From: Candidatus Latescibacterota bacterium
GTDB lineage: Bacteria > Latescibacterota > UBA2968 > GCA-2709665
Length of the DNA stretch: 64,000 bases
Reading direction: 5' to 3'
NCBI GenBank assembly: GCA_965226795.1
Contig: CBDDDZ010000005.1
Location: forward strand, 3,040,001-3,104,000
The notes beneath the pieces are model-generated. The model saw nothing but the letters and a program-made list of their open reading frames with translations. It had not been told where the DNA came from and searched no databases. Every line of letters starts with the position of its first letter. The stretch's first letter is position 1. The position numbers were made by a program, and so were the translations under genes. This document shows positions 1 to 63,188 of this stretch, piece by piece.

Positions 1-1435
1 GCTCACGGATCGTCGACATCAAAGTTACGTACATCATCAGATGATGGATCTGGTCAAACAACGTGTGTTTCAGATGGCCTGTGGATATGAGGACGCGAAC
101 GATTGCAATACGTTGCGCGAGGATCCCGGCTTCAAGGCGGCCTGTGATCGGTTGCCGCTTTCCGGTGCGGATCTGGCCAGTCAACCCACGATGAGTCGGT
201 TCGAGAACCGGATCAGCAGAACCGATTTGTATCGGATCGCCAAGGCCTTTGCGGATGTGTTTGTCGCCTCGTATGAGGAACCGCCCGAAGCCATTCTGTT
301 GGATATCGATGACACGGAAGACAAGGTGTATGGGTCTCAACAGTTGTCGTTGTTCAATGCGTATTTCAATGGCTATTGCTACCAGCCCCTGCATATCTAT
401 GAAGGCCAGACGGGCAAGTTGATCACGACGGTCTTGCGTCCTGGCAGGCGGCCCACGGGTAAAGAGATCGTCACCATTCTCAAACGGGTGATCGCCTACC
501 TGCGCCGCGCCTGGCCCGACGTGGCGATCCTGTTGCGCGGCGATGCTCATTTTTCGTGTCCGGAAGTGCACGCGTTGTGTGAAGACCAGAATGTGTATTT
601 TGTCCTCGGACAAAACGGCAACGCCAAACTGCTGCGCTCGGCACAGTCCTTGATAGACCAGGCCAAAACGCTGTATGCCGCTTCGGGAAAACCCGTGCGC
701 CTTTATCGCTGTTGGGACTATCAGGCGAAAACCTGGGCTTGTCCACAACGCATCATCTGCAAGGCGGAAGTCACCCCGCAAGGAGACAATATCCGATTCG
801 TGGTCACCAACCTAAAGCGCGCCCAACCGTCATTCATCTACAAAACCGCCTATTGCGCACGCGGCAGGATGGAAAACTTCATCAAGAATCACAAGACCTT
901 TCTCCATTCCGATCGCACCTCTTGTCACATCTTCCAGGCCAATCACTTCCGTCTCTTTCTCCACAGCGCCGCCTATGTCCTGATGCACGCCTTGGCACAA
1001 ACCGGGTTGCGCGGCACGAAGTGGACGAACGCACAGTTCAATACCCTGCAAAACCGTCTCTTGAAAGTCGCCGGGCGCGTTTGTGAGTTGAAAACAAAAA
1101 TCAGGTTCCATCTGCCAACGGCGTTTCCACTCAAACACCTTTATCGCAAGATCCTCTACAACCTGGCAACGTGTGTTCCATAACGCATCGTCGAGCTGAC
1201 CGCGCCTTCACGTTTGGACCGACACGACCAACAGCCACGGAGACGTCTGTGCTCTTGACAGCGGAATTCAGAGCAAGCTGACGCCACGGAGCAAACGTGC
1301 TGCCAGCAGGCGCCGCCGACACGGCCGGGACACGCCAAATCCGTCTCAGCCCGTGCTCTTTCGTTTCTCGTCTCACTCGGAAGCTCTTTCTGCTTCCTCA
1401 TACTGCATTCCGTGACGATTCATGAATAGGTCAGG
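1..1435 (+). mobile_element. IS1380-family insertion sequence (left end outside window); right end ...ATGAATAGGTCAGG followed by CTAG target (1436-1439)
   Basis: Transposase ORF, followed by a terminus that reads CCTGACCTATTCAT on the minus strand, resembling IS1380 CC-starting inverted repeats. cas2 homology stops exactly at this junction. Confidence 0.8.
2..1183 (+). CDS. IS1380-family DDE transposase, 5'-partial
   Basis: Frame is open from the window start. Motifs GYEDANDC, ASQPTMSRFEN, LDIDDTED, LRGDAHF, YCARGRMENFIK, DRTSCH..AN.FRL. Confidence 0.92.
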   Translation, partial: LTDRRHQSYVHHQMMDLVKQRVFQMACGYEDANDCNTLREDPGFKAACDRLPLSGADLASQPTMSRFENRISRTDLYRIAKAFADVFVASYEEPPEAILLDIDDTEDKVYGSQQLSLFNAYFNGYCYQPLHIYEGQTGKLITTVLRPGRRPTGKEIVTILKRVIAYLRRAWPDVAILLRGDAHFSCPEVHALCEDQNVYFVLGQNGNAKLLRSAQSLIDQAKTLYAASGKPVRLYRCWDYQAKTWACPQRIICKAEVTPQGDNIRFVVTNLKRAQPSFIYKTAYCARGRMENFIKNHKTFLHSDRTSCHIFQANHFRLFLHSAAYVLMHALAQTGLRGTKWTNAQFNTLQNRLLKVAGRVCELKTKIRFHLPTAFPLKHLYRKILYNLATCVP

Positions 1436-1646
1436 CTAGATGATAGATTCGTAGCGAGTCGTGTTCAAAATCGATTTCCCTCAACAGACGATTCCGGAGC
1501 ACCGCCCATTCCGTTTTTCCAACCTGGCATTCAAACAGCGATTTTTGTACTCGAACTCCATAATCCTTGCAGGCCCTCGCCACGCGGCGGAGTCGTTTTT
1601 GTCCGGCCCGGTCAATCGTCGAGACGTCGTACGCGATCAGTTTCAA
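1431..1646 (-). pseudogene. cas2: Cas2, C-terminally truncated by the IS insertion; start TTG at 1646 (ORF track start 1667)
   Basis: LIAYDVST...RLRRVARACKDYGVRVQKSLFEC...DSLRIY. The last codons and stop (CAT CTA GCC TGA) run into the IS end, and the usual type I-C Cas2 tail is missing. Confidence 0.88.
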
Positions 1647-1676
1647 TCCGCTCTCCTCAAACAGCAAAAAGTGGAC
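1640..1676 (-). CRISPR. Solitary degenerate type I-C-like CRISPR repeat (37 nt, GTCCACTTTTTGCTGTTTGAGGAGAGCGGATTGAAAC); not an array
   Basis: GT start and GGATTGAAAC end, with a 5+8+5+8+11 layout of leader, stem, loop, stem and handle. The left stem arm pairs partly through G-U. No second copy was seen in the window. Confidence 0.5.
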
Positions 1677-1684
1677 ACACTGTA

Positions 1685-2746
1685 TTACTTTGGTATGTAC
1701 GGAATATAGTCGGGAATATCGCCGCGAAGATACCGCGCGAGCAACCGGGCTTGAATGCTGAACACCTGTCCCAGACGGACATTTTCCTTGAAAAGGACGT
1801 GCTTTATCTCCGTCTGCTTGCGCCGCTGCCAGGCCTGAATCACTTCCCTCCTGCCACGGTCGGTAAATTCCACGGCGCCGCCGTCTCGCTCGCGAAAGTG
1901 CCCTGGCTCAATCTGTCGCCGATTGATCAGAGTCAACGCCAGGCGCTCCGCCAAACAGGGCCGGAATTCTTCCATCAGATCCAATGCGCACGCCGGTCTT
2001 CCAGCCCGCGTGGCGTGGAGCCATCCGACGAATGGATCCAATCCGGCGGTCGTTAACGCCGCCAAACAGTCGTGGCGTACCAGTGCGTAAATGAACGACA
2101 GCAGACAGTTCACGCGGTCACGAGGAGGACGGCGCGAGCGATTTATGAACCTGAAGTCGTCCCGCTGTTGTTTGAGCATATACTGGAAGGCCGAGAAATA
2201 GACCCTGGCACCGAGACCCTCCATTCCCCTGATGGGGTCAATCGCTTCCCGAAGCCCACATTCTCGGGGCACAGGTTCGGCATTTCCGAGTTGCTGGATC
2301 AGGCGGGCCAATTTACTGGCCGCTCCCGCCAATTCCGCGCGATCCGAATCCGTATCAGCCTCCCGGCCGGACCGCTGCAAATTGGTGCGAGAGTTCTGCA
2401 ATTTCCCAGCAACGAACTGACGGGCAATCCGGGATGCTTCCTCCGGATTGTCCGCCGCCGCGTACTGTGCTCGACGCAACAGATAGCGGGTGTCCCCGCT
2501 GCCCAGAACCTGCGCCAACAGGTACCCATTCTCCGTATGGAAATGAATCGCCACCTGGTGTCGCCAGCATAAGGCCATTGCGGGAGGCGTAACTACGACC
2601 CTTCCGAATGCGCAGATGCTCTCCAGGTGGTGAATAGGCACAGTCAATCGGGTTTGTTTTTCGATCTCGACCCGAAGCGTCAGATGATCCCTGTGTACTA
2701 CGGTGCCAGAGGTCGTCAGATAAAGGGTGTTCTGAATAATGGCCAT
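1685..2746 (-). CDS. cas1: CRISPR-associated endonuclease Cas1 (type I-C-like)
   Basis: NTLYLTT, IRGMEGLGARVYF, RSRRPPRDRVNCLLSFIY, GLDPFVGWLH, LDLMEEFRP, QARLLARYLRGD..Y.P. Confidence 0.96.
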   Translation of the reverse strand: MAIIQNTLYLTTSGTVVHRDHLTLRVEIEKQTRLTVPIHHLESICAFGRVVVTPPAMALCWRHQVAIHFHTENGYLLAQVLGSGDTRYLLRRAQYAAADNPEEASRIARQFVAGKLQNSRTNLQRSGREADTDSDRAELAGAASKLARLIQQLGNAEPVPRECGLREAIDPIRGMEGLGARVYFSAFQYMLKQQRDDFRFINRSRRPPRDRVNCLLSFIYALVRHDCLAALTTAGLDPFVGWLHATRAGRPACALDLMEEFRPCLAERLALTLINRRQIEPGHFRERDGGAVEFTDRGRREVIQAWQRRKQTEIKHVLFKENVRLGQVFSIQARLLARYLRGDIPDYIPYIPK

Positions 2747-2788
2747 GATTTGCGACTGAGCCCCTCGGCCCGCAACAGCCGGGCGAAT

Positions 2789-3427
2789 TTAGCCGGTAGT
2801 GTCGAACACCTCCCGAGCCGCCTGCGCGAGAATGGGCGGAGCGCTGGTAATTTCAGGTAGGCAATAGTCAAACAGCGAGCACTCTGTACATTGAGGTTTA
2901 TAGACGGCCCGTGGGACTTCGTTTTCCTCGATCAGCCGGTGCACGGCCTGAATTGCCTCTACCGTGAGCCGACGCAGGTCCCCTGTGAATTCGACCTCCC
3001 GCCGTCGCTTGCTCCGGGCGTGGAAGATAGCCCCTCGTGGGACCTCGAGCCCAAACATCTCTTCCAAGCACAAAGCTTGCGCGCACAGCTGCGCGTCGTC
3101 GTTATCAAATTTGCGGCGTTTGCCCTTTTTATATTCAACTGGAACCAACGAATCATCGGGATGCCGCTCGACATTATCGCACCTGCCGTTGAGCCCGAGA
3201 CGATCCGACCAGACGGGCAAGGCGCGCAATAGAGTCACGCCCTTGACGGTCTCGTAGCCAGAATCGTCGGTCTGTTCGTGCACTCTATCACCGACCACAG
3301 TGTGCTCATTGGTCCCGCGCCACCCATCAACTGCCTTCAGTGCGGCCCGGCGCTGGCAATAGAGGAAGTCGTTGATAAGTGAGAGAGGGATAGGATCAGG
3401 TGTATTCATAGGTTGGTGTCTATTCAT
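2789..3427 (-). CDS. cas4: CRISPR-associated exonuclease Cas4
   Basis: Fe-S cysteines (YCQRR; CTECSLFDYCLP), RecB motif G.CD...PVEYKKG and QLCAQALCLEEM. ATGA overlap with the cas3 stop (alternative start 3409). Confidence 0.95.
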   Translation of the reverse strand: MNRHQPMNTPDPIPLSLINDFLYCQRRAALKAVDGWRGTNEHTVVGDRVHEQTDDSGYETVKGVTLLRALPVWSDRLGLNGRCDNVERHPDDSLVPVEYKKGKRRKFDNDDAQLCAQALCLEEMFGLEVPRGAIFHARSKRRREVEFTGDLRRLTVEAIQAVHRLIEENEVPRAVYKPQCTECSLFDYCLPEITSAPPILAQAAREVFDTTG

Positions 3428-5658
3428 ACTATGTACCCCGTTTCGCCGCCATCTACAAGCGGGAGCACTCCCGCCATAAATCCTAAGAAAGGATCGTACC
3501 CAAGTTCCCACGCGAATAGTCCAGGCATGTGGTCGAACTCGCGCAGTGCCCATTCGCTGGCCCTTGATCCATAGACCTGTACGCTTCCATTCTGAAGCTC
3601 TTGGCTTGGAAGCCGTTGGCCTGATTCGATCATTTCTCTGAGGGATTCATCAACCACGGCTGTCAGTGTTGGCGAGTTAATGACGCGGAACAATTCGGCA
3701 ACTTTCGGAAAATTCAGTGCGCATTCGGCCTTGAGTAGTTCATCTTTCTTCAGCCGCGAACGACGAATCTCACGTCGCAGTGCCTCGGTGCAGGAGCTCA
3801 CACTGACTCGCCTTTCATTGAACAGTTCTCCCAATACGATCGATGAATGCTCGAATGTTGGATGAGGCCGAAGCCACGAGTCATAGACCAGTTGAACGTC
3901 CCAAACGTCGGCAGACTCGTACTCGCTTCCACGGTTTACCCGGCCAGCGATTTGCAAGAGGCTATTCAAGCAAGCGCGTTCGCGGATACCCGTCCGAAAC
4001 GAAAAATCAACGCCAGCCTCAACGCAGGAAGTTGCCACGAGCGTCCAATCCTGATCGTCATTGTTTCTGAGGCGCTTAATGACTCGATTCAGAGTGCTCG
4101 CACGGTCAGTCGGAGTGAGTGCAGTTGATAGGTGTTCAACTTGAGGATGACTCGATTGCCAGTTGTCTCGGCTCTCCCAGTCGGCAAGCTGTCGTGCAAT
4201 GACGGCTGCCGATTGCACAGTATTCACAATGAGTAGCCGCGGACCCGGGAGTTGAAGGAGCCATGGCTCCAGCGTCGTCAGACTCATGGGCTTCGAATGA
4301 GATTGATAGGTGACACGCGTTGCCTCAAGGTCCAAGCTTTCGTCCCGGACGTGCACGTTCACCAGATCAGGTACAGTCGGGGGCAAATCGACGAATTCCG
4401 GAAGCTCCCAGAAACGGCTCAGCGACCCCGATCCGACAACGAAATGGCAGCCCCAATCAGTCTTCAATTCTTGCATCCACTTCCATGCGATCGGCCACAA
4501 ATGTGCTGGTAGAGCGGCATGAGCCTCGTCGATGAAGATTGCGGAGCCAGCTACTTGATGGAGCTTTCGTAGCGCTCCAGTGCGACAGGCAGCGAGAGTT
4601 TCAAAGAACTGAACGGCAGTCGTAACAACAATGGGATTGTTCCACAAGTAGGTCAGATGTCGAGCCGCGAGGCTGCCAAATTCCGCCCGGTGATGGTGGG
4701 CTGCGACAATGCGGTCAGGAGACTCGTCCATCCTAACGAGGGACTTTCGATAGACCCGCACCGATTGGTCAATGATATTGGTGTACGGCAGGACGACAAA
4801 GACTCGCCGTAGTTTCCGCGTAGTCGCTACCTTCAGCAGGTGCGCCATGATTGCCGTTGTCTTCCCGGACCCAACGGGAGAATCGCAGGCCAACACTGAT
4901 TCACTTGACGGATCAGCGTTGCGGCAAGCGCGATAAACGTCCTGTCTCAGCTGCGTCCGCTCGTCTTCTTTGTCCCCGGCCAACCCAGCGACGTATCGAT
5001 CCAGAAGTTCGAGCCGTGCGGCCGGATCAAGTTTCGGACTCGTAACGGAAAAGGCTTGACCATAATTACGTGCCGTATCAAAATGATCAGCGTCAACAAG
5101 ACAAGACAGCGCCAAACGGAGCAATATCGACATATCGCTCCGGCGTTGCGTGTTTGAGTACGTCGATTGTCCTATGCTCTCGATGGTTGAGAGGTGTAAA
5201 CGTAGATATCCTTCTAGGTGTCCATCCGTGTGGTCTTTCGTTATGCGCCCAGATTCATCAGACTCCAGATCACGGAAGGGTAATCCGGCATCTCGCGTTC
5301 GGTGTTCGGTGATATCCGGTAGACCACGGTGGTGCGAGAAGACGAGAATTGCAGCCAGTTGTGCAGCCAGCTGAGGAGGGGTCTTTAGCAGATGTGCGAC
5401 CCCCGAATCAACATGATTCACCGGCAGACGACCACTGCCACCGACTGAAAGGATAGCTTGATTCTCCGGTTCAAGTTTCCCGATGTCGTGAAACTCGGCT
5501 GCCAACCGAACGGCCAGCTTGAGCAATCGACGATCGGTCGCGTCGGCAGTCAGCCCACCAGCATGCCGAACTGCTGACGCAATGACGTTCTCAATGTGTT
5601 CGGCATACGGCTGAGCGGGAATCTCATTCTCTGGTTGCGGACTGTGCGCAAGCAACAT
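3424..5658 (-). CDS. cas3: Cas3 HD nuclease-helicase
   Basis: LAHS..., FHDIGK, NHVDSG, SHHRGL, LVDADHFDT (HD domain); SPVGSGKT (Walker A), DEAH, ATSCVEAGVDFSF, QIAGRVNR. TAATG overlap with cas7. Confidence 0.95.
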   Translation of the reverse strand: MLLAHSPQPENEIPAQPYAEHIENVIASAVRHAGGLTADATDRRLLKLAVRLAAEFHDIGKLEPENQAILSVGGSGRLPVNHVDSGVAHLLKTPPQLAAQLAAILVFSHHRGLPDITEHRTRDAGLPFRDLESDESGRITKDHTDGHLEGYLRLHLSTIESIGQSTYSNTQRRSDMSILLRLALSCLVDADHFDTARNYGQAFSVTSPKLDPAARLELLDRYVAGLAGDKEDERTQLRQDVYRACRNADPSSESVLACDSPVGSGKTTAIMAHLLKVATTRKLRRVFVVLPYTNIIDQSVRVYRKSLVRMDESPDRIVAAHHHRAEFGSLAARHLTYLWNNPIVVTTAVQFFETLAACRTGALRKLHQVAGSAIFIDEAHAALPAHLWPIAWKWMQELKTDWGCHFVVGSGSLSRFWELPEFVDLPPTVPDLVNVHVRDESLDLEATRVTYQSHSKPMSLTTLEPWLLQLPGPRLLIVNTVQSAAVIARQLADWESRDNWQSSHPQVEHLSTALTPTDRASTLNRVIKRLRNNDDQDWTLVATSCVEAGVDFSFRTGIRERACLNSLLQIAGRVNRGSEYESADVWDVQLVYDSWLRPHPTFEHSSIVLGELFNERRVSVSSCTEALRREIRRSRLKKDELLKAECALNFPKVAELFRVINSPTLTAVVDESLREMIESGQRLPSQELQNGSVQVYGSRASEWALREFDHMPGLFAWELGYDPFLGFMAGVLPLVDGGETGYIV

Positions 5659-6515
5659 TATTCCACCATCAAATCCCGAACTTCCGTGACACGAGCGGCC
5701 AATGTGTCCGGTAACTGCGTTGGCGCGGTGTAATCGGACCAAGCGTCTGAGGGTGAATCGTGATCGCCATTCTTGTTTGGTGTCAATGCCTCGATAATCG
5801 CGAAATCGGAGCACGATCCTAGCACTGATTTATGTTCAACCACCCAAGCGTGCCGTAGATCGACAAGCGGTCGGGCATGAGACCGAGTATGTGCGTAGGC
5901 GTGTGGGATGACTTTAAACAACAAGCTGATATCTTGCTGCGTGCAACCCGATTTGTGGGCCATGGAGGGATTCACAAAGAACGGCATACAATAGACGCCA
6001 TGTGGCACAAAACGATACCCCATCGGTGCCATGCCGCGGTCTTTGCCTTCTTGCACCCCGGCCTTGTTTGTGTTGGTGTGGCGACTGATTTCGATCGGGG
6101 CCACACTCAGTCCAAGGCCGAATTGTACGACACCCGTCTTGATTGTGTCAGCAGCTCCTTCCTCCAAGAAAGTATTGCCGAACACTCGACCATCCCAGTA
6201 TTTGTCTTGGAATGACCCGTTTTTCAATTCTTCTTCAATCTGCTTACGGTTCCGTCCACGAGACTCAAGGATCATGAATTTTTTGTCGCTCAGGCTCATT
6301 TCCGTCTGCATCACTTGCCAAACAGGCCCATCCTTTGCATCGATCAAATCGCGCACTTTGCGTTTGAACGAAACGGGAGAAATCTCCCCGTGACCATCAG
6401 GACGCTGCCGAGGATCGCTTTCGCGGTCTGGGTCCCCATTGGGATTGGAATTGACGACTTCAATTATCAGAAGTCCCGTAAATCGTTTCACGCCGTTGGC
6501 AGTAGTATCTGTCAT
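5658..6515 (-). CDS. cas7: Cas7 (Csd2/Csh2-like) backbone subunit
   Basis: NSNPNGDPD...PR, ISPVSFKRKVRD, YWDGRVFG, TGVVQFG. ATGA overlap with cas8. Confidence 0.93.
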   Translation of the reverse strand: MTDTTANGVKRFTGLLIIEVVNSNPNGDPDRESDPRQRPDGHGEISPVSFKRKVRDLIDAKDGPVWQVMQTEMSLSDKKFMILESRGRNRKQIEEELKNGSFQDKYWDGRVFGNTFLEEGAADTIKTGVVQFGLGLSVAPIEISRHTNTNKAGVQEGKDRGMAPMGYRFVPHGVYCMPFFVNPSMAHKSGCTQQDISLLFKVIPHAYAHTRSHARPLVDLRHAWVVEHKSVLGSCSDFAIIEALTPNKNGDHDSPSDAWSDYTAPTQLPDTLAARVTEVRDLMVE

Positions 6516-6922
6516 TTTTGCTCTCCTTCGTTTAAGGTATTCGACGAAACGTCGTTGGAAGTTTCCTTTTCGGGACGGGCGAGATACCCAAGTAGCATTG
6601 CAACCTTGTCGGTATCCGAACACCGCCTCGGCATCTCCCTTTCAGAAAGTGACGCGCATACGCGACCTATCTCGCCGAGGAAGTACTTGGCAAGACGTAC
6701 TTCCCCGCCACCCTGGACCGTTTGCGCCCAAGCGTGGTAGGGCTTGATGCGCTGCCACAACAGGGCAAGGGCCTTTTCAGGTGTTTCCATCGCACTTTTC
6801 ATTAGGGCGTTGCCAACTAGCTGCGGTGGCACTTGGCCCTTTCGCACCTCATGGCAATACTGTACATGTAGCTGATCGGCCAAACTCAGCAGTCGGCCAA
6901 TCAGATAGGGTGGATTCTTCAT
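6512..6922 (-). CDS. cas11: Putative internally translated Cas11 small subunit (136 aa) within cas8c
   Basis: In-frame ATG at 6922 preceded by AAAGGA; begins MKNPPYLIGRLL. Internal Cas11 translation is established for type I-C. Confidence 0.6.
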   Translation of the reverse strand: MKNPPYLIGRLLSLADQLHVQYCHEVRKGQVPPQLVGNALMKSAMETPEKALALLWQRIKPYHAWAQTVQGGGEVRLAKYFLGEIGRVCASLSEREMPRRCSDTDKVAMLLGYLARPEKETSNDVSSNTLNEGEQK

Positions 6923-8656
6923 ATAGATTCCTTTCTTGTAGCCGAGTTTCCCAAGTAGCAATCCGAGAATCTGGGGAAGCATCAAGGCTTGTTTGCCATA
7001 GACCTTACCCATCGGGTGAACCTTCCCCAAGTGGACAGCTTGGCCGATCACCAGCAGTAGCGATAACGAATTACTGGTGATCGCCAGAATAGCCCTCATG
7101 GCCACAGTTTGCAGCACTTGACCGTCTGCCAATAGCAACGTCAAGCCGTCCGCAATCTGGAAATCGAAAGCAGTTTCGGCATGTGTGCCCATTCGCTGCC
7201 AAACCGTGTTTAGACACCAAACCACTTTAGCCGGATAGGGAGTAATAGGGCGCCGCCAAACGGGTTCGTCTCCTTTCTTTCGACCAAATTGACGAATCAT
7301 CACTGGTGGCGAGTTGCGACAAAGCTCTTGCCATTCGTCAGCACTGTCGAGCAAGTGTTGAACGGTATAACGACTACTGTGCAACACCTTGGTCCGGAAG
7401 CCGTCAGGCTTAGTCAGGACAAAGACACGCAGTTCAGCATTGCGTGATGACTCGGGTCGTCCCTTGAGAGCCTTGGTAACGCGACGCGCACATGCCTCAA
7501 AGAGTGAACCGTCAGGATCAGATAGTTCTCCTTCAACACCACAGAGCAATCCCGCCAATTCAGGTGCTTCTACAGGCAATTCGGAGGGATAGGTAATTAG
7601 CATTGCCGACGCACTACCAAGCGAAGAAACATCGCACCACGTTTTGCCGCGTCGTTCGTCTCTGGTGATCCACTCCAAAGCAGTCTTCATTTCGAGCCGT
7701 GCCGGCTGCAAGACATAGAATGACCTAGCGTCGGCCAAACCATACCTCCGCTGACATGGCGACTCGTTGGACATTGCACGTAGTTTTACATTCCCCAGCA
7801 CTGGTATCTTGATTTCCGGAAAGCTGTCATTCATGCCGCCGCCTTCCACTCCGCCAAAGGCATCGGGTGCTATCGCGTGGCCCTGATTCCCTTCCTCGAT
7901 GGTTTCCATAGCTAGCAGGCGATCATTTACCCAAGCCTGAACCTTCGGATGGTTGGCTGGATACGCGAATTGAGATTGATCAACCAATTCCAAGGTGATC
8001 GCTATGTTATTGGGTGTCTTCCCAGAATGAAAGAACAAAACATCCATCCATTCAGCGGCTTCGGATTGTTCGGATCTTATTTCGCGTATCGCGATTTCCT
8101 TCAATCGCTCATGCAAGGCAGCCCCATTCGTCTGCTGGGCACGACGTAGCAATTCCACGAAGGATCGTGATTCATCTGTGCTCTCACCCAACATCGCCGT
8201 CATATTTTGAATGACTGAGGACAGGCACTCATTTAATTTATCCATTGCATCTTTGCTACGTGCTCCTTTGTCAGGTCGAATCCAGCCCGACGTACTAACC
8301 GAAAGCAGATATGCAAGTTCCTTGTCCCGCACTGCTGTTTCTGGAGGCTTCTTCGATCCAAGCGCTTTTCTGAACTTGGCCGCACGTTCCTTTTTTTCTT
8401 CATCTGCAAATTGCAGTAAGGGAGGTACGTTGAACGATGGAAACGAGTAGCCAGCCGCTTTTTCGTATTTCCGCAATTCTGCCCGAATTTGCGGGTCGGC
8501 AATAGGAGAGACTTTAGCGACATGTCCTTGATCGTCGAGTTCGACAAAGAAAGCCTTCCCGCCTCGGGGACATTCCTTAAAATGCCGATGCCAAGAATGA
8601 AGGGCGACACCAGTCCGTTTCAGGCTCTCGGAAAGAAGAAAGACCTCATTCAGCAT
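6512..8656 (-). CDS. cas8c: Divergent Cas8c-like large subunit (714 aa)
   Basis: Lies between cas5 and cas7 with overlapping start/stop codons; MLNE.. N-terminus; C-terminal PYLIGRLLSLADQLH...MLLGYL resembling the Cas11c region. Confidence 0.75.
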   Translation of the reverse strand: MLNEVFLLSESLKRTGVALHSWHRHFKECPRGGKAFFVELDDQGHVAKVSPIADPQIRAELRKYEKAAGYSFPSFNVPPLLQFADEEKKERAAKFRKALGSKKPPETAVRDKELAYLLSVSTSGWIRPDKGARSKDAMDKLNECLSSVIQNMTAMLGESTDESRSFVELLRRAQQTNGAALHERLKEIAIREIRSEQSEAAEWMDVLFFHSGKTPNNIAITLELVDQSQFAYPANHPKVQAWVNDRLLAMETIEEGNQGHAIAPDAFGGVEGGGMNDSFPEIKIPVLGNVKLRAMSNESPCQRRYGLADARSFYVLQPARLEMKTALEWITRDERRGKTWCDVSSLGSASAMLITYPSELPVEAPELAGLLCGVEGELSDPDGSLFEACARRVTKALKGRPESSRNAELRVFVLTKPDGFRTKVLHSSRYTVQHLLDSADEWQELCRNSPPVMIRQFGRKKGDEPVWRRPITPYPAKVVWCLNTVWQRMGTHAETAFDFQIADGLTLLLADGQVLQTVAMRAILAITSNSLSLLLVIGQAVHLGKVHPMGKVYGKQALMLPQILGLLLGKLGYKKGIYMKNPPYLIGRLLSLADQLHVQYCHEVRKGQVPPQLVGNALMKSAMETPEKALALLWQRIKPYHAWAQTVQGGGEVRLAKYFLGEIGRVCASLSEREMPRRCSDTDKVAMLLGYLARPEKETSNDVSSNTLNEGEQK

Positions 8657-9293
8657 AGATTAACACTCCATTTTCGATAGCTACGTTTTGTTGAAACGTC
8701 GGCTTGTATTTACCGAACTTCGGTTCGGAGAAGACAGAGTGTAGCATACTTGGAAGGAACGTGTTGATTTTTTGACAGACTTCAGTCTCGTCACGAAATG
8801 GGCCTACGTAGCTTGGCGTAAATTCCTTCCAACCGAGGCAAGGAACGGAATGCCACTGACCGCGTGTCAACCGACGTTCGAACATATCTCGAAATGCGTG
8901 TGCTCCGTTTCCAGAAAGAGTCGGAGATCGCTTAGCACGCTCCGATAGTTGGCGCATCCCAGAATCCACGGTTTCCACGTTTGCGTACAGTCGATAGCTA
9001 ACATTGATCAACACCGTTGCCAGTAGTTGGTAGCTGCTTCCCTTCTTCATTATCTTGCTCTTACGCAAAGGTCCTCCATAGTTTGTCGAATACGTGTGAA
9101 AGACAAGTGGTGCGCATATTTCGATTTTTACGGGTTTAACGTTTGCTGACTTGAGCCAGCAAATAGATTCGAACATCCCCTTGGCCGCTGAGAACGTCGG
9201 CACTGGATAGCTAACTGGTGCATCACCAGTATCGGGACGTGTCCACATGGCTGTTGGGCCGGCAATTTCAAATTGGACTGTATAAGATTTCAT
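8646..9293 (-). CDS. cas5: Cas5 (Cas5d-like)
   Basis: FEIAGPTAMWTRPD...VSYPVPTFSAAKGMFESI, L.NVSYRLYA, PCLGWKEF. GGAG RBS precedes the ATG at 9293. Confidence 0.92.
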   Translation of the reverse strand: MKSYTVQFEIAGPTAMWTRPDTGDAPVSYPVPTFSAAKGMFESICWLKSANVKPVKIEICAPLVFHTYSTNYGGPLRKSKIMKKGSSYQLLATVLINVSYRLYANVETVDSGMRQLSERAKRSPTLSGNGAHAFRDMFERRLTRGQWHSVPCLGWKEFTPSYVGPFRDETEVCQKINTFLPSMLHSVFSEPKFGKYKPTFQQNVAIENGVLIYAE

Positions 9294-9316: not shown

Positions 9317-9680
9317 TCACTTTAACAGAACCTCCGTCAGCCGCTTTGGTTCCTTTTTGCGCGGGTCGACATCGAATCCGCCGGATTCCAGTGCCGTGAC
9401 GCCGAGCGAAGGCTCCGCGCCTTCATCCCCAAACACGGTGGTACCGCCGACAACTTCCCCCTCGAACTCAATTTCGGCGCGGGTAATGTCCAACGCGATG
9501 GATTCACCGTCCGCAAGCATGTACTCACGGCTCCACCGCGGCTTGAGTCCGATCGACTCGAGTTGCACCCGCGGCACGAGCGAATCGAACGATCCGGAAT
9601 CGACGAGGAATTCGCCGGTCCAACTGCGTTCCGGATCCGCAGGGGTTGCGTATGGTTACGTCAACGTACGTCGCACCCAT
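9317..9680 (-). pseudogene. Clan AA (retropepsin-like) aspartic protease with an apparent +1 frameshift at 9642-9645
   Basis: MGATYVDVTIRNP in one frame continues in another as ADPERSWTGEFLVDSGSFDSLVP...LADG...EPSLGVTALES.G..VDP. Confidence 0.8.
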
Positions 9681-10180: not shown

Positions 10181-11158
10181 TCACGTCCCGGTGCAACTCC
10201 TCCCATACATCTCGCCTGCCGCGATCATGTCCGCCGCGATCTCACGCCTCAGTTCCTCTGGCGCCAGCACCTCGCACTCCGGTCCCCAGCCTCGAATCCA
10301 CGGTTTCATCTCCAGCGTGTGCTTCACCCTGAGCCGCATACGGCAGCCGCCGTCCGGCTCGTCCGTCACGTCAACCACGCCCGGCCAGTCCGATTCCCTC
10401 ACGCGGTACGCCACACGGGCTGAAAACCGCAGTGCCACGTCCACAACCTCGTCCCCACCCATAATGCCCCACGAGTGCTGCAGGAAATCGTACGGATCAA
10501 ATCCTTCTCTCGTATCGTACACCGTTTCCAACAGCGTCGCCCGCTCGATGCGCTCCACCTTGAACTCTCGAATATCCCGCCGCAAGTGGTCGTATCCGAT
10601 AACATAGCATGCATATCCGACGGGTGACGGCTCGATGAAGTAGGGGTCAATGGTGCGCTCGGTGGTTTCGCCGGTCTGCGGATTGTGATAGATCAGACGC
10701 ACCTGCCTGCGTTCGGACCAGGCGCGAGTGAGCGTTTCCAGTATGCGGATATGATCGGGATCGGGCCTGCGTTTGTCGGCAACCGCCGCGGTTCGACCGA
10801 TGTGTTCGCCAATGGACTCCGGCATTGCGCTGGCGAGTTTCTCGAGGGCAGACACAACGTGCGGATTGTGTTCGTCGCTGTGCGCCGAAAGCAGGCGGGC
10901 AGCCAGGTAGAGCGCGAGCGCCTCGTGCAGATTCACCCGGACGGTGGTCAGATACTTGTCCTTCAGCACGCCGAACCGCCCGTCATCCTCCCAGACCGGC
11001 GATCCCGCCTTGGACAGCGACCGCAGGTCCCGGTACACGGTACTCCGATGCACGCCGAATCGCGCGGCGATGTCGGTCGCTCTCCTTCCACCCGAGGATC
11101 GATAGAGAAAGGTTTCAATCGCCTTGAGCCGCGCAGCGCGGCTCATCGTTCGTTCCAT
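10181..11158 (-). CDS. HTH-WYL-WCX transcriptional regulator (PafB/YafY-like)
   Basis: N-terminal HTH (IAARFGVHRSTVYRDL), WYL core (ERTIDPY...CYVIGYDHLRRDIREFKVERI), C-terminal WIRGWGPECEVLAPEELR. GGAGG RBS. Confidence 0.92.
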   Translation of the reverse strand: MERTMSRAARLKAIETFLYRSSGGRRATDIAARFGVHRSTVYRDLRSLSKAGSPVWEDDGRFGVLKDKYLTTVRVNLHEALALYLAARLLSAHSDEHNPHVVSALEKLASAMPESIGEHIGRTAAVADKRRPDPDHIRILETLTRAWSERRQVRLIYHNPQTGETTERTIDPYFIEPSPVGYACYVIGYDHLRRDIREFKVERIERATLLETVYDTREGFDPYDFLQHSWGIMGGDEVVDVALRFSARVAYRVRESDWPGVVDVTDEPDGGCRMRLRVKHTLEMKPWIRGWGPECEVLAPEELRREIAADMIAAGEMYGRSCTGT

Positions 11159-11194
11159 CACGAATCCTCCGCGTGGCGAGAATATACATTCAGA

Positions 11195-11215
11195 TTGTCG
11201 CAACTAGTGCGACAA
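11195..11215. promoter_or_regulatory. Perfect inverted repeat TTGTCGCA-ACTAG-TGCGACAA, candidate autoregulatory operator of the WYL gene
   Basis: 8-bp arms, about 35-55 bp upstream of the WYL start. Confidence 0.6.
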
Positions 11216-11647: not shown

Positions 11648-11944
11648 ATGGTATTCACCGTTGAAATCTACGTCGCTCAAAACGGCAGACAGCCGTTCGC
11701 TGAATGGTTCGGCGCTCTCCGCGATATCCGGACACAGGCTCGCATAGAAGCCCGTCTCCGCCGATTGAGCCTGGGTCTTTTGGGCGACCACCGGCCCGTC
11801 GGTGGCGGTGTCATAGAGATTCGCCTGGACTTCGGACCGGGTTTTCGAATCTATTTCACGCGTGTCGCTGCAGACGTCTTACTCCTGCTCTGTGGCGGAG
11901 ACAAGAGCACGCAGCAGAGAGATATCCAGCGGGCAATATCGTAA
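11648..11944 (+). CDS. RelE/HigB-like addiction-module toxin (possibly a premature stop)
   Basis: G..PF.EWF..LRD...ARI..RL.RL..G..GD...VGGGV.E.R.DFGPG.RIYF...LLLCGGDKSTQQRDI. Confidence 0.9.
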   Translation: MVFTVEIYVAQNGRQPFAEWFGALRDIRTQARIEARLRRLSLGLLGDHRPVGGGVIEIRLDFGPGFRIYFTRVAADVLLLLCGGDKSTQQRDIQRAIS

Positions 11945-11970
11945 CTGACTGACTACAAGGAGCGCTCCCG

Positions 11971-12282
11971 ATGGAACCTTCCGTCCCGTTTAAAAAACAC
12001 CATTTTGAATTCCTCAGTGATCCGGAACGCGCTCGCGCCTACCTCGAGGTGGCGCTCGAGGAATACGCCAGGGATCACGACAGGTCGGCCCTTCTGCTTG
12101 CGCTCAAGGACGTAGCGGCGGCAAAGGGCGGGCTGGGAAAATTGGCACGGCAGGCGAACCTGAACCGAGCCCATGTATACAAGACGCTTTCCGAAAAGGG
12201 CAATCCTCGTCTGGACACGATGGAGAGAATACTGAACAGCCTCGGGTTCAGGCTATCGATCGAACCGCTGGCAAAGGAGTAA
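11971..12282 (+). CDS. Addiction-module antidote protein (HTH antitoxin)
   Basis: AYLEVALEE...LLLALKDVA.AKGG...LNR.HVYKTLSEKGNPRLDT...LGFRL; directly downstream of the toxin. Confidence 0.9.
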   Translation: MEPSVPFKKHHFEFLSDPERARAYLEVALEEYARDHDRSALLLALKDVAAAKGGLGKLARQANLNRAHVYKTLSEKGNPRLDTMERILNSLGFRLSIEPLAKE

Positions 12283-12341: not shown

Positions 12342-12821
12342 CGACGTCTCCGGCGTGGCGTGGAAGTGTCGGAAACCGCACGGTGCGGGCGGGACGCCCG
12401 CGCTCCCAGGTGAGCACGTTCAGCAATCGGTTCACAGCAGTCAGCCAGAAGCCAACCAGGCGACGTCACCGCCGTGGCGTGGAAGTGTCGGAAACCGCGC
12501 GGTGCGGGCGGGACGCCCGCGCTCCCAAGTGAGCAAAACAGCGTACAGCAATCAGTTCACATCGGTCAGCCAGAAGCCAACCAGGCGACGTCACCGCCGT
12601 GACGTGGAAGTGTCGGAAACCGCACGGTGCGGGCGGGACGCCCGCGCTCCCAGGTGAGCAAAACAGCGTTCAGCAATCGGTTCACAGCAGTCAGCCAGAA
12701 GCCAACCAGGCGACGTCACCGCCGTGACGTGGAAGTGTCGGAAACCGCGCGGTGCGGGCGGGACGCCCGCGCTCCCAGGTGAGCAAAACAGCGTTCAGCA
12801 ATCAGTTCACAGCGGTCAGCC
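12342..12821 (+). repeat. Tandem array of four 119-125-bp units, each with REP hairpin GCGGGCGGGACGCCCGC-GCTCCCA
   Basis: Units start at 12342, 12461, 12586 and 12711, are near-identical over their length, and have no unique spacers. Confidence 0.92.
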
Positions 12822-12978
12822 AATTTCTTGGGCGTACAAGAAAAAGGACGAAGAAAAAAGAAAATGAGAAAAAGAAGAATAGAGAAACGGAACGGTGATC
12901 CACAGACAAAAAAACCCAACCGGACACCGGTCACTTGCCGTTTCACCTTTGTTCTGACGCCGGACGGCGCAATGCGCG

Positions 12979-51835: not shown

Positions 51836-52026
51836 ATACATCAAACGAATCCTGTGTCCAGGCACGCCACGAGTCGCCGCCGTCTCCCCCACTGGAAGAA
51901 GGACGGCGCGCCCCACCTTCACACACGCTTCCTGAACGGCTCGACAAGCCATTGTGCGGAGGCGGAAATGATTGATTCGTGAATAATGCAGCTCAAATGC
52001 GGATACATTCAATCTTGTTTCGAATT

Positions 52027-55000
52027 TCACCCTTCTCTTCCAAAGGCGCTCGCAAAGATCAGAAAGTCGCTGAACCCTATCGCGTCGTTCCCATCCAGAT
52101 CGAAACGAGCGTCGTACCCCTCGTCGCCCTGACTCAATCCGAACTGTGCCGCGAACAGCACGAAGTCGGTAAAACCGACGGTTCCATCTCTATCAAAGTC
52201 GGGATCAGGCGTCCGAGGCTCGAGATGCGACGCAATATCCCACAGCAATATCGTGCCGTCATCTGACCCGGACGCGAGGGAGGCGCCGTCAGGTGAAATA
52301 TCCACTGAGTGGACCGAACTCGTATGCCCTTGCAGGTCGCCTATCTGTTCTTGTGTCTCCACGTCCCACAGCTTGACGGAACCCCAGGTACCGGAAACGA
52401 GCATCGCTCCGTCAGACGAAAACGCCAACGAATATACGGAACTCCGATTGTCCAGAGAGTAGATGGGGGTTCTTGTCGCCGTTTCCCACAGCCTGACCAT
52501 TCGATCTGACGACCCGGAAGCGAGGGTCTTCCCATCGGGCGAAAACACCACGGAATTTACTGAACCCGTATGATCTTCCAGTGAAGCTATGAGTTCTCGC
52601 GTGGCGACGTTCCAGAGCTTGACCGTCTTGTCCTCATAGCCCCCTGCCGAAGCCAGAATGGCGCCATCAGGCGAAAACGCCACCGAGCGGACTTCATTCA
52701 TGTGCCCTTCGAGGATGCCGATCGGCTCGCGAGTACCCATGTCCCACAGTCTCACCGTGGCATCGTTCCATCCCCCTGCCGAAGCCAGGAGGGCGCCATC
52801 GGGCGAAAACGAAACCGAAGTGACACCACTCGTATGCCCTTCCAAAGTCTCGACCAGTTCTCGGGTCTTCACGTCCCATAGCCTGACGGTGCGGTCCCAT
52901 GACCCGGAGGCCAGGACGGCGCCGTCGAAAGAAAACGACACAGAACCGACCCTGGACCTATGTCCTTCAAGAGTGGCGATCGGGTTCCGAGTTGCCGCGT
53001 CCCATAGCCTGATCGTGCCGTCCACTGACCCCGACGCCAAGAGCGTGCCGTCGGGCGACAGCGCCATGGAGGACAAGGACGCGTGTCCGGAGAGTCCGGC
53101 GGCATTCCCGGTCTCTAACTCCCTCAACAGCACCGTGCCGTCCGCGGCGCCGGAGACGAGGGTACCCCCATCGGGCGAGAACGACACCGAACCGACCCCA
53201 CCCCTATGCTCTTCAAACGTGGCCACATCCTGGTGTGTAGCTACTTCCCACAGTCGCACCGTACGGTCCGATGAACCCGAGGCCAGAGTGGCGCCGTCGG
53301 GAGAGGAAAACGACACAGAACGAACCTCACCGGTATGCCCCCTCAGCGTCGCGACCTGTGCTTGTGTAGCCGCGTCCCACAGCCGGACCGTGGGATCGTC
53401 CCATCCTCCGGACGAAGCCAGGGTGGCGCCATCGGGCGAGAACGACACTGAAGTGACTCGATCCGTATGCCCTTCCAGTGCGGCCACCTCCGTCTGGGTC
53501 GCCACGTCCCACAACCGGACCGTGCCGTCCTGAAATCCGGACACCAGCCTCGTCCCGTCCGGCGAAAAAGCCACCGAGAGGGGCCAAAGAGAGTCGCTCT
53601 CCCGCGGCACTTCCCAGGTGCCCACCTCGCGCCTGGTCTCGATATTCCACAGCTTGATGACCTGATCCCATGACCCGGAGGCCATAGCCTTCCCATCACG
53701 GGAAAACACCACCGCAGTGACTCTGCCCCAACCGGCATGCCTCAGCGTGCCGATCCGCTCACCGCTTTCGACCCGCCAAAGCTCGACCCGTCCGTTATCA
53801 AGTCCAGAGGCGAGGGTGCCGTCCGGAGCGAACGCCACCGATTGGACCGGACTCTCACTCGGCAGCAGCGCCAGGGCTCGGGACGTGGCGGCCTCATACA
53901 GCCACACGCCGGTGGCGCTGGCCACGGCCAGACAGCGGCCGTCGGCAGAAAGGGCGACTGCCCGGTCCCCTTCTCCCATGGCGCCCTTGCCCAGACGCGC
54001 CGTCGCGGCCGTGGGCAGATGCCATGTCCGGTAGTCCCCCACCATGTCCACCACCGGGACGCCGACGCCATCCGCGGTAAACGCCGCCAGTTCGTGCATT
54101 CCGAGGTACACCTTCACCACGTTCGGCCCTGGATGAGGACCCAGGATGAGGGTCAGCTCGGCCCGGCCGTCGGCGTCGGTTGTATCATGCCCCACCGTGA
54201 AGCGGCCGCTGAGCTTGCCCTCGCCGGCCGCGACCGTGAAGGCGACGGCCGCATTCGGCAGTGGATTGCCGTATTGATCACGCACTTCCACGACCAGTGG
54301 ATGAGCCAGCGCCTCCCCCGGCGCGCCCTGCTGGCCATCTCCGGAGATGATCTCCAGCGCGTGAGGAGTGGTATACGGCAAAAGGTCCCACAGCAGGACG
54401 GTGCCATCCTCAGAGCCCGAAGCAAGCTTCGTCCCATCGGGTGAAAACGACACCGACTGTACGGCATCCGAATGGCCCTTCAGGGTGGTGACCAGTTCTC
54501 GGTTCCCCATGTCCCACAGATAGACCACAGGCCGAATTGTCTCGCCAGCGAGACTTGTCCCGCCAGCGAAACTTGTCCCGCCAGCGAGACTTGTCCCGTC
54601 AGGCGAAAAAGACAAGGAATTGATCCACGGTGGTGTCCAATTCCTTCCAAAGGCAATTGTAAGGGTAACGATCGGTGTTTGCGTTGCGACATCCCACAGG
54701 TTGACCTCGGGGCGACCAAATACCGCAGTAGCGAGGGTGCCGTCAAGCGAAAATGCCACGGAAGTGATCCTGTCATTCTCGAAAAGAGTGGCGATCCGTG
54801 TTTGCGTTGCAACGTCCCACAACTCGACTCCAAAATCCGATCCCATAGCGAGGATTGCGCCGTCGGGGGAAAACGATACTGAATGGATAAAAGATGAAAG
54901 AGGAGTGGCTATCTGTGTGCCCGTCTTAGTGTCCCACAAAATAGCGTCAAGATTACTTCCCGAGGCGAGAGTGCCATCGGGCGAAAAAGACAGGGAAGTG

Positions 55001-57702: not shown

Positions 57703-57861
57703 TTCGGTACCTGCTTTCTAAAAACGGATATCCTAAACTCTCGATCTCGGGATCTACGAGTATATCCGCGCTACGATGCCACAGTTATAGGCATGTTGCA
57801 CGGCTGCGTCCAACATGCATTTACAAACGCTATCGAACCAGCATACTGCGAATTTTTCGTT

Positions 57862-60800
57862 TCAGGAGGTGCTTTTCCCAAAGGCGCTCGCAAAGATCAG
57901 AAAGTCGCTGAACCCGATCGCGCCGTTACCATCCAGGTCGAATCGAGCGTCATATCCCTCGTCGCCCTGGCTCAAGCCGAAGTTTGCCGCAAACTGCACA
58001 AAATCCCCAAAGCCGACGGTCCCGTCGCCATCGAAGTCGGACGCGGCCCTGGCGGTGGCGGTAAAGGCCACCGGCTCGAGGTCGGCCGCCGTTGCGGCGA
58101 CGGTGTTCGTACCAGGTTGGCTTCCAAGGGTCAGAGTCGTAGCAGCGCGGCCGTTCTCATCCGTGGTGGCCGTGGTTACAGACAGCGTCCCCCCGCCGGC
58201 GGTAACGGAAAAAGTGACGGTTGTACCGACGACCGGGGCACCGTTCTGATCCAGCACCCGAACGACGAAGGGGTCGCCCAAGATGCCACCGGCCGGCCCT
58301 TGCTGCTCGACGTCGGAGACCTTGGTCAGTGTATGCGGCCGGAGCTGGACACGCTGCAGATCCCACAGCACCATTGTGCCATCCCGTGACCCGGAGGCAA
58401 GCGTGCCGCCGTCGGGCGAGAACGCCAAGGAATGGACCCACTCCGAATGCCCCCCCAGGGTGGCGGTTTGCTCTCGGGTCGCCATCTCCCAGAGCTTGAC
58501 CGTGCCGCTGCCCCGCTCCCCCGAGGCCAGGATGGTCCCATCCGGAGAAAAGGCCAGAGAGCTCACACCAACGACACGGCCGGAAGGACCAACCACAGGC
58601 TCTTGAAGGGTGGCGATCTGTTGCCTGCTGTCCATGTCCCACAGTCGGATCGTTCCTTCGTGGCTTCCACCTCCGGAAGCCAGGATGGTTCCATCGGGGG
58701 AAAACGCCAACGCATCGATTCTACCCCACCCATGCCCTTGAAGGGTGGCAATCTGTTGCCTGGTACCTATGTCCCACAGTCTGATGCCAGTAGACTCATC
58801 TATCCCCCCACCACCGGTGGCCAAGGTGGTTCCATCAGGAGAAAACGCCACAGAAAAAACGCCGTCATCGGCTTCCCTCACTTCCAGGACAGCGATCTGT
58901 TGCCGGCTCGCCACGTCCCACAGCCTGGCCGTCCTATCGTAGGCCCCGGAGACGAGGGTTCTCCCATTGGGCGAGAACTCCACGGAATGGACGGACCCTG
59001 CCCGAAGAGTCCCGATCTGTTCTCGCTTCCCAACGTCCCAGAGCGCGATCCCCCAACCTCCCGCCCTCAAGGATCCACCGGATGCGAGTACCGTTCCATC
59101 GGGCGAAAACGCTACCGGAGAGACGGGAGCATCGGTAAACGCGCCTTTGAGGGCGGCGATCGGTTCTCGGGTCGCCACGTCCCACAGCAGAATCTCCCCG
59201 CCCACCCCGGAAGCGAGGGTTGACCCATCGGGCGACATAGACATCGAGAAGACGGGCAGATGCCCGGTGAGGGCTGCGGCATTGCTCGTCTCCAGATCCC
59301 GCAGCAGCACCGTGCCGTCCTTCGACCCGGACGCCAGGGTTTGCCCATCGAGGGAAAACGCCAACGAAAAGACGCCTTTGGTATGCTCCTCGAACGTGGC
59401 GATCTGTCGTCGGCTCGCCACGTCCCACAGTATGGCAGTCCGGTCGCTCGACCCGGAGGCGAGGGTTCGCCCATCTGGGGAGAACGCCACCACTTCAACC
59501 CACCAGTTGTGTCCTCCGAGGCTGGCGATCTGTCGTCGGCTCGCCACGTCCCACAGGCGGACCGTTTTGTCAAAGGACCCGGATGCAACCATTTGCCCAT
59601 CTGGGGAGAACGCCACCGCTTCGACCCCATCCGAATGCCCTTCGAGAGTGGCAACCTCCGTTTGTGTCGGCACGTCCCACAGCCGGACCGTCCCATCATC
59701 GAACCCGGATACGAGCATCGTCCCATCGGGCGAAAAATCCACCAGGGTGGAGCGTATTCCGTTCCCCTTTTTCACCACCTCCCAGGTGGCGACTGGCGCT
59801 TGAGTCTCTACATCCCACACCTTGATGATCTGGTCCTCCGACCCGGCCGCGAGGCTTCTCCCATCCGGCGAGAACGCCACCGCAGTAACCCAAATCCGCG
59901 AGTGCTCCAGCGTGCCGATCGACGTGCCCCTCTCCATCTCCCACAGCTCGACCCCGCCGTTACCCAGTCCCGCAGCGACGGTAGCGCCGTCCGGCGAGAT
60001 CGCCACCGAATAAACGGGACTGGCCGTCGGCAGCAGGGCCTGGGCACGGGACGTGGCCACCTCGTACAGCACGACGCCGATGCCGGTGGCCACGGCAAGA
60101 CGTTGATCATCCGGGAAAAACGCCACCGCCCGGTCCCCTTCCCCCAGGACCCCCTTTCCAAGGCGGATGGCGCCGGCGGGCAGATGCCAGGTCTGAAAGT
60201 CCCCTCCCATGTCGACCACGGACGCGCCTACGCTCTCGGCGTGGAAGGTCGCCAACTCACGCCGGCCCAGAGAGATCCCGACGGTGTTGGTGCCGGGATC
60301 GGGACCAAGGGTAAGCGAACGCTCGGCGCGGCCGTTGGCATCCGTGGTGGCCTCCTCGATTGCGTATCGCTCACTGAGCTTGCCGTCGCCGGCTGTAACC
60401 GTGAAGGTGACGGCCGCTCCGGGCAGGGGATTGCCGAACTGATCCCGCACTTCCACAAGGAGGGGCTGGGCAAGGGTGGCTCCGGGTGCGGCCTGCTGGT
60501 TGTCGCCGGAGATGATCACCACCTCGGTAGGACGCGGACGCGGCCCCGTCCACTCGGTGATGTCCCACAGGTTGACGGTGCCGTCCCATTGCCCGGAGGC
60601 GAGGATCTCGCCGTCTGGTGAAATCGATACCGAGTAGACCCCCGAGGCACTTCCGAGCGAGGCGATCGGTTCCTGCAGCACCAGGTCCCACAGGAGTATC
60701 GTGCCCGTGTTGTCGCCGGAAGCGAGCAGTGACCCATCCGGCGAGAACGACACCGATTGGAGCCCGAACGAGCCCTGGAGGAGCTCGGCGATTTCGGTCC

Positions 60801-62472: not shown

Positions 62473-62642
62473 ATGGCTATCCCCGTGTAATTTGACTTGA
62501 ACCCATGGGTTCCCTGACGCCGCCGTTGGCGCTTGCAGCACACCACGGAACTCGCCATTTCTCAGGCAGGGTCGTTTGCTAATTTCATTGGATCCCGTAT
62601 ACGATTGGTACGCGGCCCGCAGCCAAGTCTTTGACACGATTC

Positions 62643-63188
62643 TCAGTTCCCAAACGCGCCGGCAAAGATCAGAAAGTCGCTGAACCCGATCGTGCCGTTT
62701 TCGTCCAGATCGTACCGCGCATCGTATCCAGCATCGCCTTGACTTCGCCCGAATGCGGCGGCAAACCGGACGAAGTCGGCAAAACCGACGGTCCCGTCGC
62801 CGTCGAAGTCGGGAGTTGGAGGTTGAGATGTGACATACGGCTACATATCCCACAACAGAACCGTACCGCCATCACTCCCGCTTGCCAGGGTCTGTCCATC
62901 CGGACTAAACGATACGCTCCTGACCCAAGACGTATGCCCGGTGAGCAGGGAGAGTTCTTCACCCGTCTGTGTATCGTAGAGCCAAATACCGGGGGCACTT
63001 CCAACGGCAAGACGTGTTCCATCCGGAGAATACGCGATTTCGCTTATCCAGCCTTTTCCCAGGCGCGCTTTTGCACCTTCGGGTAGATTCAACGTATGCC
63101 CTCCAGGGGCGGTCTGTGCGAGGCTTGCCTGCACAAACAGGACCGCAACCAACAAGAGGACGAGATTGAACAACCGCCACTTTTTCAC
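62643..63188 (-). pseudogene. Collapsed secreted WD40 + EF-hand/dockerin-like gene with an in-frame TAG at 62841-62843
   Basis: Signal peptide, LPEGAKARLGKG, only about 2 WD units, WDM*PY, then an intact PDFDGDGTVGFADF...FAGAFGN stop in the same frame. Confidence 0.85.

Follow-up and report, generated by a model that had tools for sequence, protein, structure and literature searches.

How does a gene come to carry its ribosome-binding site and start codon inside a sequence that looks like a CRISPR repeat, and does the nuclease that would process such a repeat take part in the expression of that gene? Both questions are raised by the junction of cas1 and cas2 in a Candidatus Latescibacterota bacterium. 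The stretch of DNA analysed here (the window) is 64,000 nucleotides long, and coordinates are window positions unless prefixed C5 or L001; the cas genes and the repeat copy at the junction are all on the minus strand.

The divergent type I-C operon sits on a 3.1-Mb chromosomal contig and has the gene order cas5-cas8c-cas7-cas3-cas4-cas1-cas2. Its cas1 (1685–2746) is the only one in the genome and scores 415 bits with TIGR03640, against a cut-off of 385; cas4, cas3, cas7 and cas8c occupy 2789–8656, and cas5 lies at 8646–9293. The gene set is that of type I-C (cas1c, cas2, cas4, cas3, cas5c, cas7c and cas8c, with no cas6), where cas5c, cas7c and cas8c are best matches that fall below their cut-offs. 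Cas6 was rejected as the maturase, with no match to either TIGR01877 or PF10040 in this 96% complete genome; because no Cas6 was found, the divergent Cas5c, the only candidate processing nuclease detected, becomes the candidate maturase. No CRISPR array lies inside the window, and both arrays of the genome are found just to its left. The cognate one, array A (C5:3038055-3039477, on the same strand as the cas genes), holds 20 copies of a 37-nt repeat, and none of its 19 spacers (0/19) matched elsewhere in the genome.

The cas2 gene is itself interrupted, a feature that the earlier note on this DNA had missed. An IS1380 element (1–1436, plus strand; NF033539 above cut-off) splits cas2 at 1436; it starts left of the window, measures 1702 nt with one CTAG target copy, and is one of three identical copies in the genome. 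What remains at the junction is the 5′ part of cas2, about 70 codons long (1436–1646; TIGR01573 above cut-off), with the last ~25 codons beyond the element and left of the window, so that this copy has 69 residues counted from an anchor Leu, compared with 93 in relatives. In the RNA runs X1 and X3, and likewise in run X7, contigs pass from one side of the element to the other and skip 1701 nt; intact cas2 alleles therefore exist. The identity of the three element copies, together with the element-free alleles in three runs, suggests a recent, polymorphic insertion, by which some members of the population would lose spacer acquisition.

Between the cas1 stop codon (1685–1687) and cas2, the earlier note had quoted a 37-mer and read it as a solitary CRISPR repeat. 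The 37-mer is confirmed at 1640–1676, and the reading holds. Aligned without gaps to the array A repeat it is identical at 22/37 positions, unevenly spread: 17/19 over the last 19 and 5/18 over the first 18. With a 2-nt insertion allowed, identity rises to 27/37 and the alignment starts the copy at 1678; the true left edge thus lies 2 nt beyond 1676, and the degenerate copy spans 39 nt (1640–1678). Its final 14 nt are an exact suffix of the array A repeat, and it is the only repeat-suffix match of at least 13 nt outside the arrays in the 5,410,777 bases searched. The local alignment score of the junction is 39, compared with a maximum of 24 among 500 shuffles. The resemblance to the genome's own array consensus, on which the note had staked its claim, is thus present, and the alignment identifies the junction 37-mer as the cognate type I-C repeat in decayed form. 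Viewed as a standalone repeat unit, it matches the cognate repeat over at least 16 bp, outside an array and inside a cas locus, and it recurs in closely related loci, and its identity (22/37 ungapped, 27/37 gapped) falls short of the near-identity expected of such units. Rfam returned only a match of the 3′ handle to CRISPR-DR9 (E 3.3), which is uninformative. The 6 nt between the cas1 stop and the copy (1679–1684) appear, from short matches, to resemble the end of the array leader, a likeness that is clearer in two related loci, L037 and L038.

The copy can be divided into three parts: a decaying left stem arm and loop (1659–1678), a remodelled right stem arm that contains the Shine-Dalgarno (SD) sequence GAGGAG (1658–1653), and an 11-nt handle (1640–1650) that contains the TTG start codon of cas2 (1646–1644). 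Both translation signals thus belong to the repeat copy, as had been proposed. The 16S tail carrying the anti-SD is present in the genome, and the array repeat already pairs with it (−9.3 kcal/mol, compared with a range of −6.8 to −8.3 kcal/mol); an inserted repeat would therefore bring its own SD. The TTG replaces the native first three codons and is very likely the true start of cas2, because an in-frame stop three codons upstream of it in L035 and L036 leaves no earlier start. Within a five-member clade the SD shows 0 changes in 5 sites (P=0.005), and TTGAAAC shows 1 change in 7. The gene is full length in the 6 other loci of this type and its second codon positions are constrained (7 changes in 68, compared with 1.08 per four-fold site), from which it follows that cas2 is translated. 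No sigma-70-like site was found on the minus strand upstream of the copy in 1400–3600.

Comparison with homologous operons, a check that the earlier note had proposed, drew on 21 close loci including this one, with cas1 about 80% identical or more and with most named records labelled Candidatus Latescibacterota. A repeat-derived insert stands at the cas1-cas2 junction in 11 of the 21. In seven, cas2 starts at the handle TTG, with AGGAG 6 nt upstream in every case (7/7); in four, a repeat-like unit precedes a normal ATG or GTG, abutting it directly in three and lying 9 nt away in one. The remaining ten have no insert, and there the cas1 stop and the cas2 start overlap or are 4–5 nt apart. Scored against 500 shuffles, all seven TTG-type junctions reach P≤0.004 and all four ATG-type junctions P≤0.016, while nine of the ten insert-free junctions give P>0.08 and the tenth, L046, gives P=0.018; the four loci that had no array in the fetched DNA were scored with the repeat of this genome. 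The 5′ end and the loop of the repeat are kept in register in several relatives. Relative to the abutting form, the TTG form lacks 10 nt, a loss that removes the first three cas2 codons, and the N-terminus of Cas2 reads M-K-L in TTG-type loci compared with M-F-I/V-L in insert-free relatives. Trees, from which L012, L082 and L116 were dropped for long branches or short cover, place the TTG form in two clades; a single clade is not rejected (p-AU 0.078), and neither is one origin for all inserts (p-AU 0.147). Beyond the close loci, 80 others with arrays have cas1-cas2 junction scores of at most 30, and among the best 80 of 408 matches in a metagenome scan there were only distant relatives (at most 78% identity), none with an insert. 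When copies were ranked against 14 lineage repeats the outcome was mixed: the cognate repeat came first in 6 of the 23 copies for which it is known, and ranked 10 to 13 for the six TTG-type copies that have a known one.

Similar copies occur elsewhere in these operons. Clear solitary copies stand at cas gene starts in 16 of 22 close loci scanned (one further locus has a weak copy and five have none), twelve of the 22 being covered by only 6 kb upstream. They are found before cas2, cas1, cas4, cas5 or cas7, in many cases running right up to the ATG. Copies before cas1 are near-perfect (33/37) in three relatives, and in L042 and L048 cas1 has a TTG start supplied by a second handle copy, the same take-over as at cas2. 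Among 68 distant loci only one, L170, has a clear copy; seven of the eight matches listed there look like chance. The copy in L170 is a worn solitary repeat about 1250 nt before cas2, near the start of cas1, in a locus with a 32-nt repeat. That copies end exactly at the repeat boundary suggests that they arise by a CRISPR-specific or a repeat-mediated recombination step. The idea that the insert began as a self-spacer taken up at the start of cas2 was discarded: the junction is natively preceded by bases other than TTC, the assumed PAM. The genes around the junction are far less constant. In L033, cas1 is 96% identical, yet cas3, cas5, cas7 and cas8 are only 26–59% identical; to judge by such comparisons, cas1-cas2 stays constant and the effector modules around it are exchanged freely. 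L175, L176 and L036 likewise differ sharply from 3424–9293 in effector modules (cas3, cas5, cas7 and cas8) and gene order, despite nearly the same cas1-cas2 and repeats.

The predicted fold of the junction copy has an energy of −8.3 kcal/mol (z −1.37; 20 of 200 shuffles fold as well), compared with −20.1 kcal/mol for the array repeat; the corresponding values for L036 and L038 are about −4 kcal/mol. An inner 6-bp stem ends at the cut base, and an outer helix pairs the left edge of the copy with four handle bases, GGAU; the SD is covered by the fold. Within the five-member clade the left arm and loop have accumulated 19 changes in 21 columns, compared with 22.7 expected at the four-fold rate (P=0.26). 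The earlier note had seen in the left arm a decay by C-to-T changes that preserves G-U pairs. Across 26 hand-picked copies, however, pair-breaking G-to-A changes in the right arm (47) exceed C-to-T changes in the left arm (33), and when decay was simulated with the same number of changes, 44% of runs were as stable as this copy (median over the 26 copies 38%, minimum 6%), a comparison that is conservative because the spectrum of changes was taken from the same 26 copies. The argument from G-U pairs fails because the left arm is neutral and the fold is no better than simulated decay. There is no sign in these sequences that the hairpin is maintained by selection.

The bases around the cut site give a more divided picture. 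The six bases between the SD and the TTG, which hold the cut site, show 2 changes in the five-member clade compared with 6.5 expected (P=0.044), and the same six positions before cas1, taken as a control, show 5. In TTG-type copies the cut site and handle are lost in 2/7 and altered in 2/7 more; the losses are those of L037 and L038, in the other TTG-type clade, where the bases after the cut site are replaced by A-rich sequence and the SD and TTG are kept. Among 19 copies with a non-coding handle, which were chosen by likeness, are related so that rows are not independent, and have a handle that is also the ribosome-binding region, the handle is kept at 183/209 positions compared with 239/342 over the first 18 nt. 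No position in these non-TTG copies is preserved less often than the cut-site G (7/19): it survives in 5/5 copies before cas4 and in 1/9 before cas1.

Can the candidate maturase cut here at all? The handle of the junction copy is identical to that of the array repeat, and the canonical Cas5c cut, whose position is inferred from the available text of PMC8524198, is predicted at 1651/1650. It would thus fall between the SD and the start codon, and the earlier note was right about its place. According to that text, recognition by Cas5c rests mainly on the bases that follow the cut, a shorter 5′ arm is tolerated, and a repeat lacking its first 7 nt was cut; for this last reason the weak stem of the junction copy would not protect the cut site, and the copy may well be cut by Cas5. 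The enzyme encoded here is unusual. In pairwise alignments it has Cys, Ala and His at the places of the canonical Tyr-Lys-His triad (also given as Tyr/His-Lys-His), of which the Lys is called invariant in Cas5c in the same source. An invariant His marks its own subfamily; the residue two places further on is Tyr in 108 of 120 homologues and Phe, as here, in 8. This Cas5c subfamily is large (2461 homologues) and has invariant TxYGGPLR and His-x-Tyr motifs instead of the canonical triad. Contigs of the RNA runs X1 and X2 bridge the predicted cut at a depth of about 5 and may represent uncut molecules or DNA, which is compatible with partial cleavage. A contig of X3 stops at 1671 and one of X1 breaks at 1674–1693; neither end is at 1650, nor do the two coincide, and at contig level no processed end is visible.

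On balance, it is probable that a repeat from the organism's own CRISPR entered the cas1-cas2 junction in an ancestor and that its worn remnant is now kept because cas2 uses it for ribosome binding and as a start codon. The end of the leader and the first repeat would have been copied into the junction, so that the copy ended at the cas2 ATG, as it does today in three relatives; a 10-nt deletion would then have removed the native first codons and brought the handle TTG in frame. The G-run of the right arm would have become AGGAG, 6 nt from the TTG, and drift of the left arm, which halved the hairpin energy, would free the SD. Some transcripts may still be nicked by Cas5, given the intact cut site, but there is no sign that selection keeps the nicking. 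Against a role in starting translation and nothing else we count the constraint on the cut-site bases, the better preservation of the handle across the 19 copies, the P value of L046, and the many copies that stop precisely at a start codon, more than SD spacing by itself would call for. The main alternative is a selected negative feedback: Cas5c, alone or in Cascade, would cut cas mRNA at the copy, separating the SD from the TTG, and would then remain on the handle and cover the start codon. Free Cas5 would in this way limit Cas2 (in relatives also Cas4, Cas1 or Cas5) and with it spacer acquisition. We regard this as possible but doubtful. The identity of cut site and handle with the array repeat, the inner stem that ends at the cut base, the handle-side constraint, the recurrence of copies at five kinds of cas gene start, the cut-site G kept in every copy before cas4, the sequence preferences described for Cas5c (PMC8524198) and the lack of a detected Cas6 all speak for it. 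The stem, however, is not under selection, and the fold pairs the left edge with GGAU and so hides bases that Cas5c reads; the cut-site G is mostly gone from non-TTG copies, above all before cas1, which looks like escape from cleavage; handle bases are lost in L037 and L038, the cas2 copy is absent in 10/21 close loci, RNA contigs cross the predicted cut (at a depth that may include DNA), and the triad is missing from the pairwise alignments of this Cas5.

Regulation at the junction could also do without Cas5. Translational coupling through hairpins that hide an SD is well established, and the predicted fold does cover the SD here; ribosomes reaching the cas1 stop, which in TTG-type loci whose cas1 end is intact lies 6–8 nt ahead of the copy, might open a residual hairpin and tie Cas2 output to Cas1 translation, as the ancestral overlap of stop and start did. 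This is improbable, given a fold that is no better than shuffles or simulated decay and that is weaker still in L036 and L038, and a cas1 stop that in L035 lies about 200 nt further upstream. Less probable still is the suggestion of the earlier note that the cut releases a crRNA-like RNA with the cas2 5′ coding sequence as its spacer; such an RNA would guide Cascade to a promoter in the manner of CreR or CreA, or soak up Cascade in the manner of Racr RNAs. The handle is intact and such guides are described in type I systems in the available text of 10.1101/2023.03.03.530964 and 10.1101/2023.03.10.532045, but the genome contains 0 TTC-flanked seed matches of at least 10 nt (position 6 free; TTC is taken as the PAM by analogy with other I-C systems), and the sole seed match near the locus is cas2 itself, behind AAC; the guide is not supported because there is no PAM-flanked target near the locus. 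No second repeat reaches a score of 27 or more beside the copy, where the DNA is cas2 coding sequence and a very decayed repeat could escape this threshold. The would-be spacer is ordinary cas2 coding sequence common to insert-free relatives, and other copies precede unrelated coding sequences. Coincidence, finally, which the earlier note had allowed for, would mean that SD, spacing and a TTG-AAA start merely resemble the 3′ end of the repeat. The poor ungapped match of the first 18 nt and the 123 other places in the genome that also reach the full 37-nt ungapped score of 22 are what can be said for it; the scores of the shuffles, the 0/6301 ORF starts of the whole genome that score at least 36 against the repeat, the relatives in which the 5′ end and loop have stayed in register, and the 33/37 copies before cas1 exclude it for practical purposes.

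How does the junction copy compare with known systems? Standalone repeats in cas loci, as described by Shmakov et al. in the main text of 10.1101/2023.03.03.530964, occupy long intergenic regions close to cas3, cas8, cas10d or cas6 and take the form of near-identical repeats or of promoter-repressing mini-arrays; the terms 'cas2', 'I-C', 'start codon' and 'ribosome' are absent from that main text. Like those units, the copy is a lone cognate repeat, intergenic in a type I cas locus, with no second repeat. Unlike them, it fills a 38-nt gap, is identical to the repeat at 27/37 positions, and carries an SD and a start codon. With the CreR and CreA mini-CRISPRs, as far as they are described in the available parts of 10.1101/2023.03.10.532045 and PMC8501985, it shares degenerate repeats inside cas loci that are tied to control of cas expression; those, however, are separate small RNA genes with a second degenerate repeat 20–60 nt away and a spacer that pairs with a PAM-flanked promoter (both absent here, on the assumed PAM), and they act on transcription, whereas any action here would be in cis on the mRNA. 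Racr solitary repeat units, in the available text of PMC10651486, resemble it as single repeats that are potentially processed and load Cas proteins; Racrs, however, are encoded by phages or other mobile elements to inhibit immunity, whereas this copy lies in the host's own chromosomal cas operon. Relative to the type I-C repeats processed by Cas5c in the available text of PMC8524198, the repeat here has 37 nt and a 10-bp stem, the Cas5 is divergent and lacks the canonical Lys, and the substrate would be an mRNA.

Engineered Csy4/Cas6f hairpins have been put into mRNA leaders for the control of translation. The junction copy is like these leaders in that a repeat at the translation start could let the maturase set expression; unlike them, it would be a natural case, with an activity that is predicted. 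Among titles and abstract openings, drawn mostly from the open-access literature, no paper on repeats fused to cas start codons was found. Even as a relic, the junction indicates that CRISPR repeats have been copied repeatedly into the cas operons of one lineage and have become translation-start signals, with the handle TTG turned into a start codon for both cas2 and cas1. Surveys limited to long intergenic regions or to near-perfect copies would miss such repeats. It is conceivable, though we would not count on it, that in this type I-C lineage the cas operon is dotted with repeat copies joined to start codons, and that Cas5 cuts and caps its own mRNA at each, throttling translation of Cas2, Cas1, Cas4 or Cas5 when crRNA substrate is scarce; this would need neither a guide nor a DNA target and would be tuned for each gene by the decay of its copy. 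If Cas5 does cut the copies, they would form a natural, guide-free limit on spacer acquisition that is set by the interference side at the level of translation, distinct from promoter repression of the CreR type. Natural variants that look cleavable and others that look like escapes provide built-in controls, and the idea is testable with one purified protein and a few RNA oligonucleotides.

The surroundings of the operon hold further features. The second array (L001:6456-12056; C5:3031456-3037056) has 76 repeats of another sequence, in a genome where neither a second cas1 nor a cas6 was found. It starts within a truncated copy of a ~1-kb segment that is duplicated at L001 5398-6438 and 12052-13032 (95–96% identical), and lone B-type repeats lie near L001 12866, 6271, 4815 and 1492. 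At L001:4707-4815 there is a chimeric unit of B-repeat, spacer and A-repeat, followed by a 444-aa ORF and then by another worn A-type repeat (L001:2887-2923); the ORF is thus placed between two repeat copies, the second 1820 bp from the first. Directly before cas5, at 9317–9577, lies a small gene resembling aspartic proteases of clan AA, which in relatives is found before cas4, cas1 or cas3. Further upstream of cas5 are a WYL-like regulator gene (10181–11203), two short plus-strand ORFs that by eye resemble a RelE/HigB-type toxin and HTH antitoxin pair (11704–12282), and a 125-nt unit in three tandem copies, 93–97% identical (12417–12822). The end of the window, 52000–64000, is taken up by a long run of ~126-nt coding repeats in WD40-repeat-like genes.
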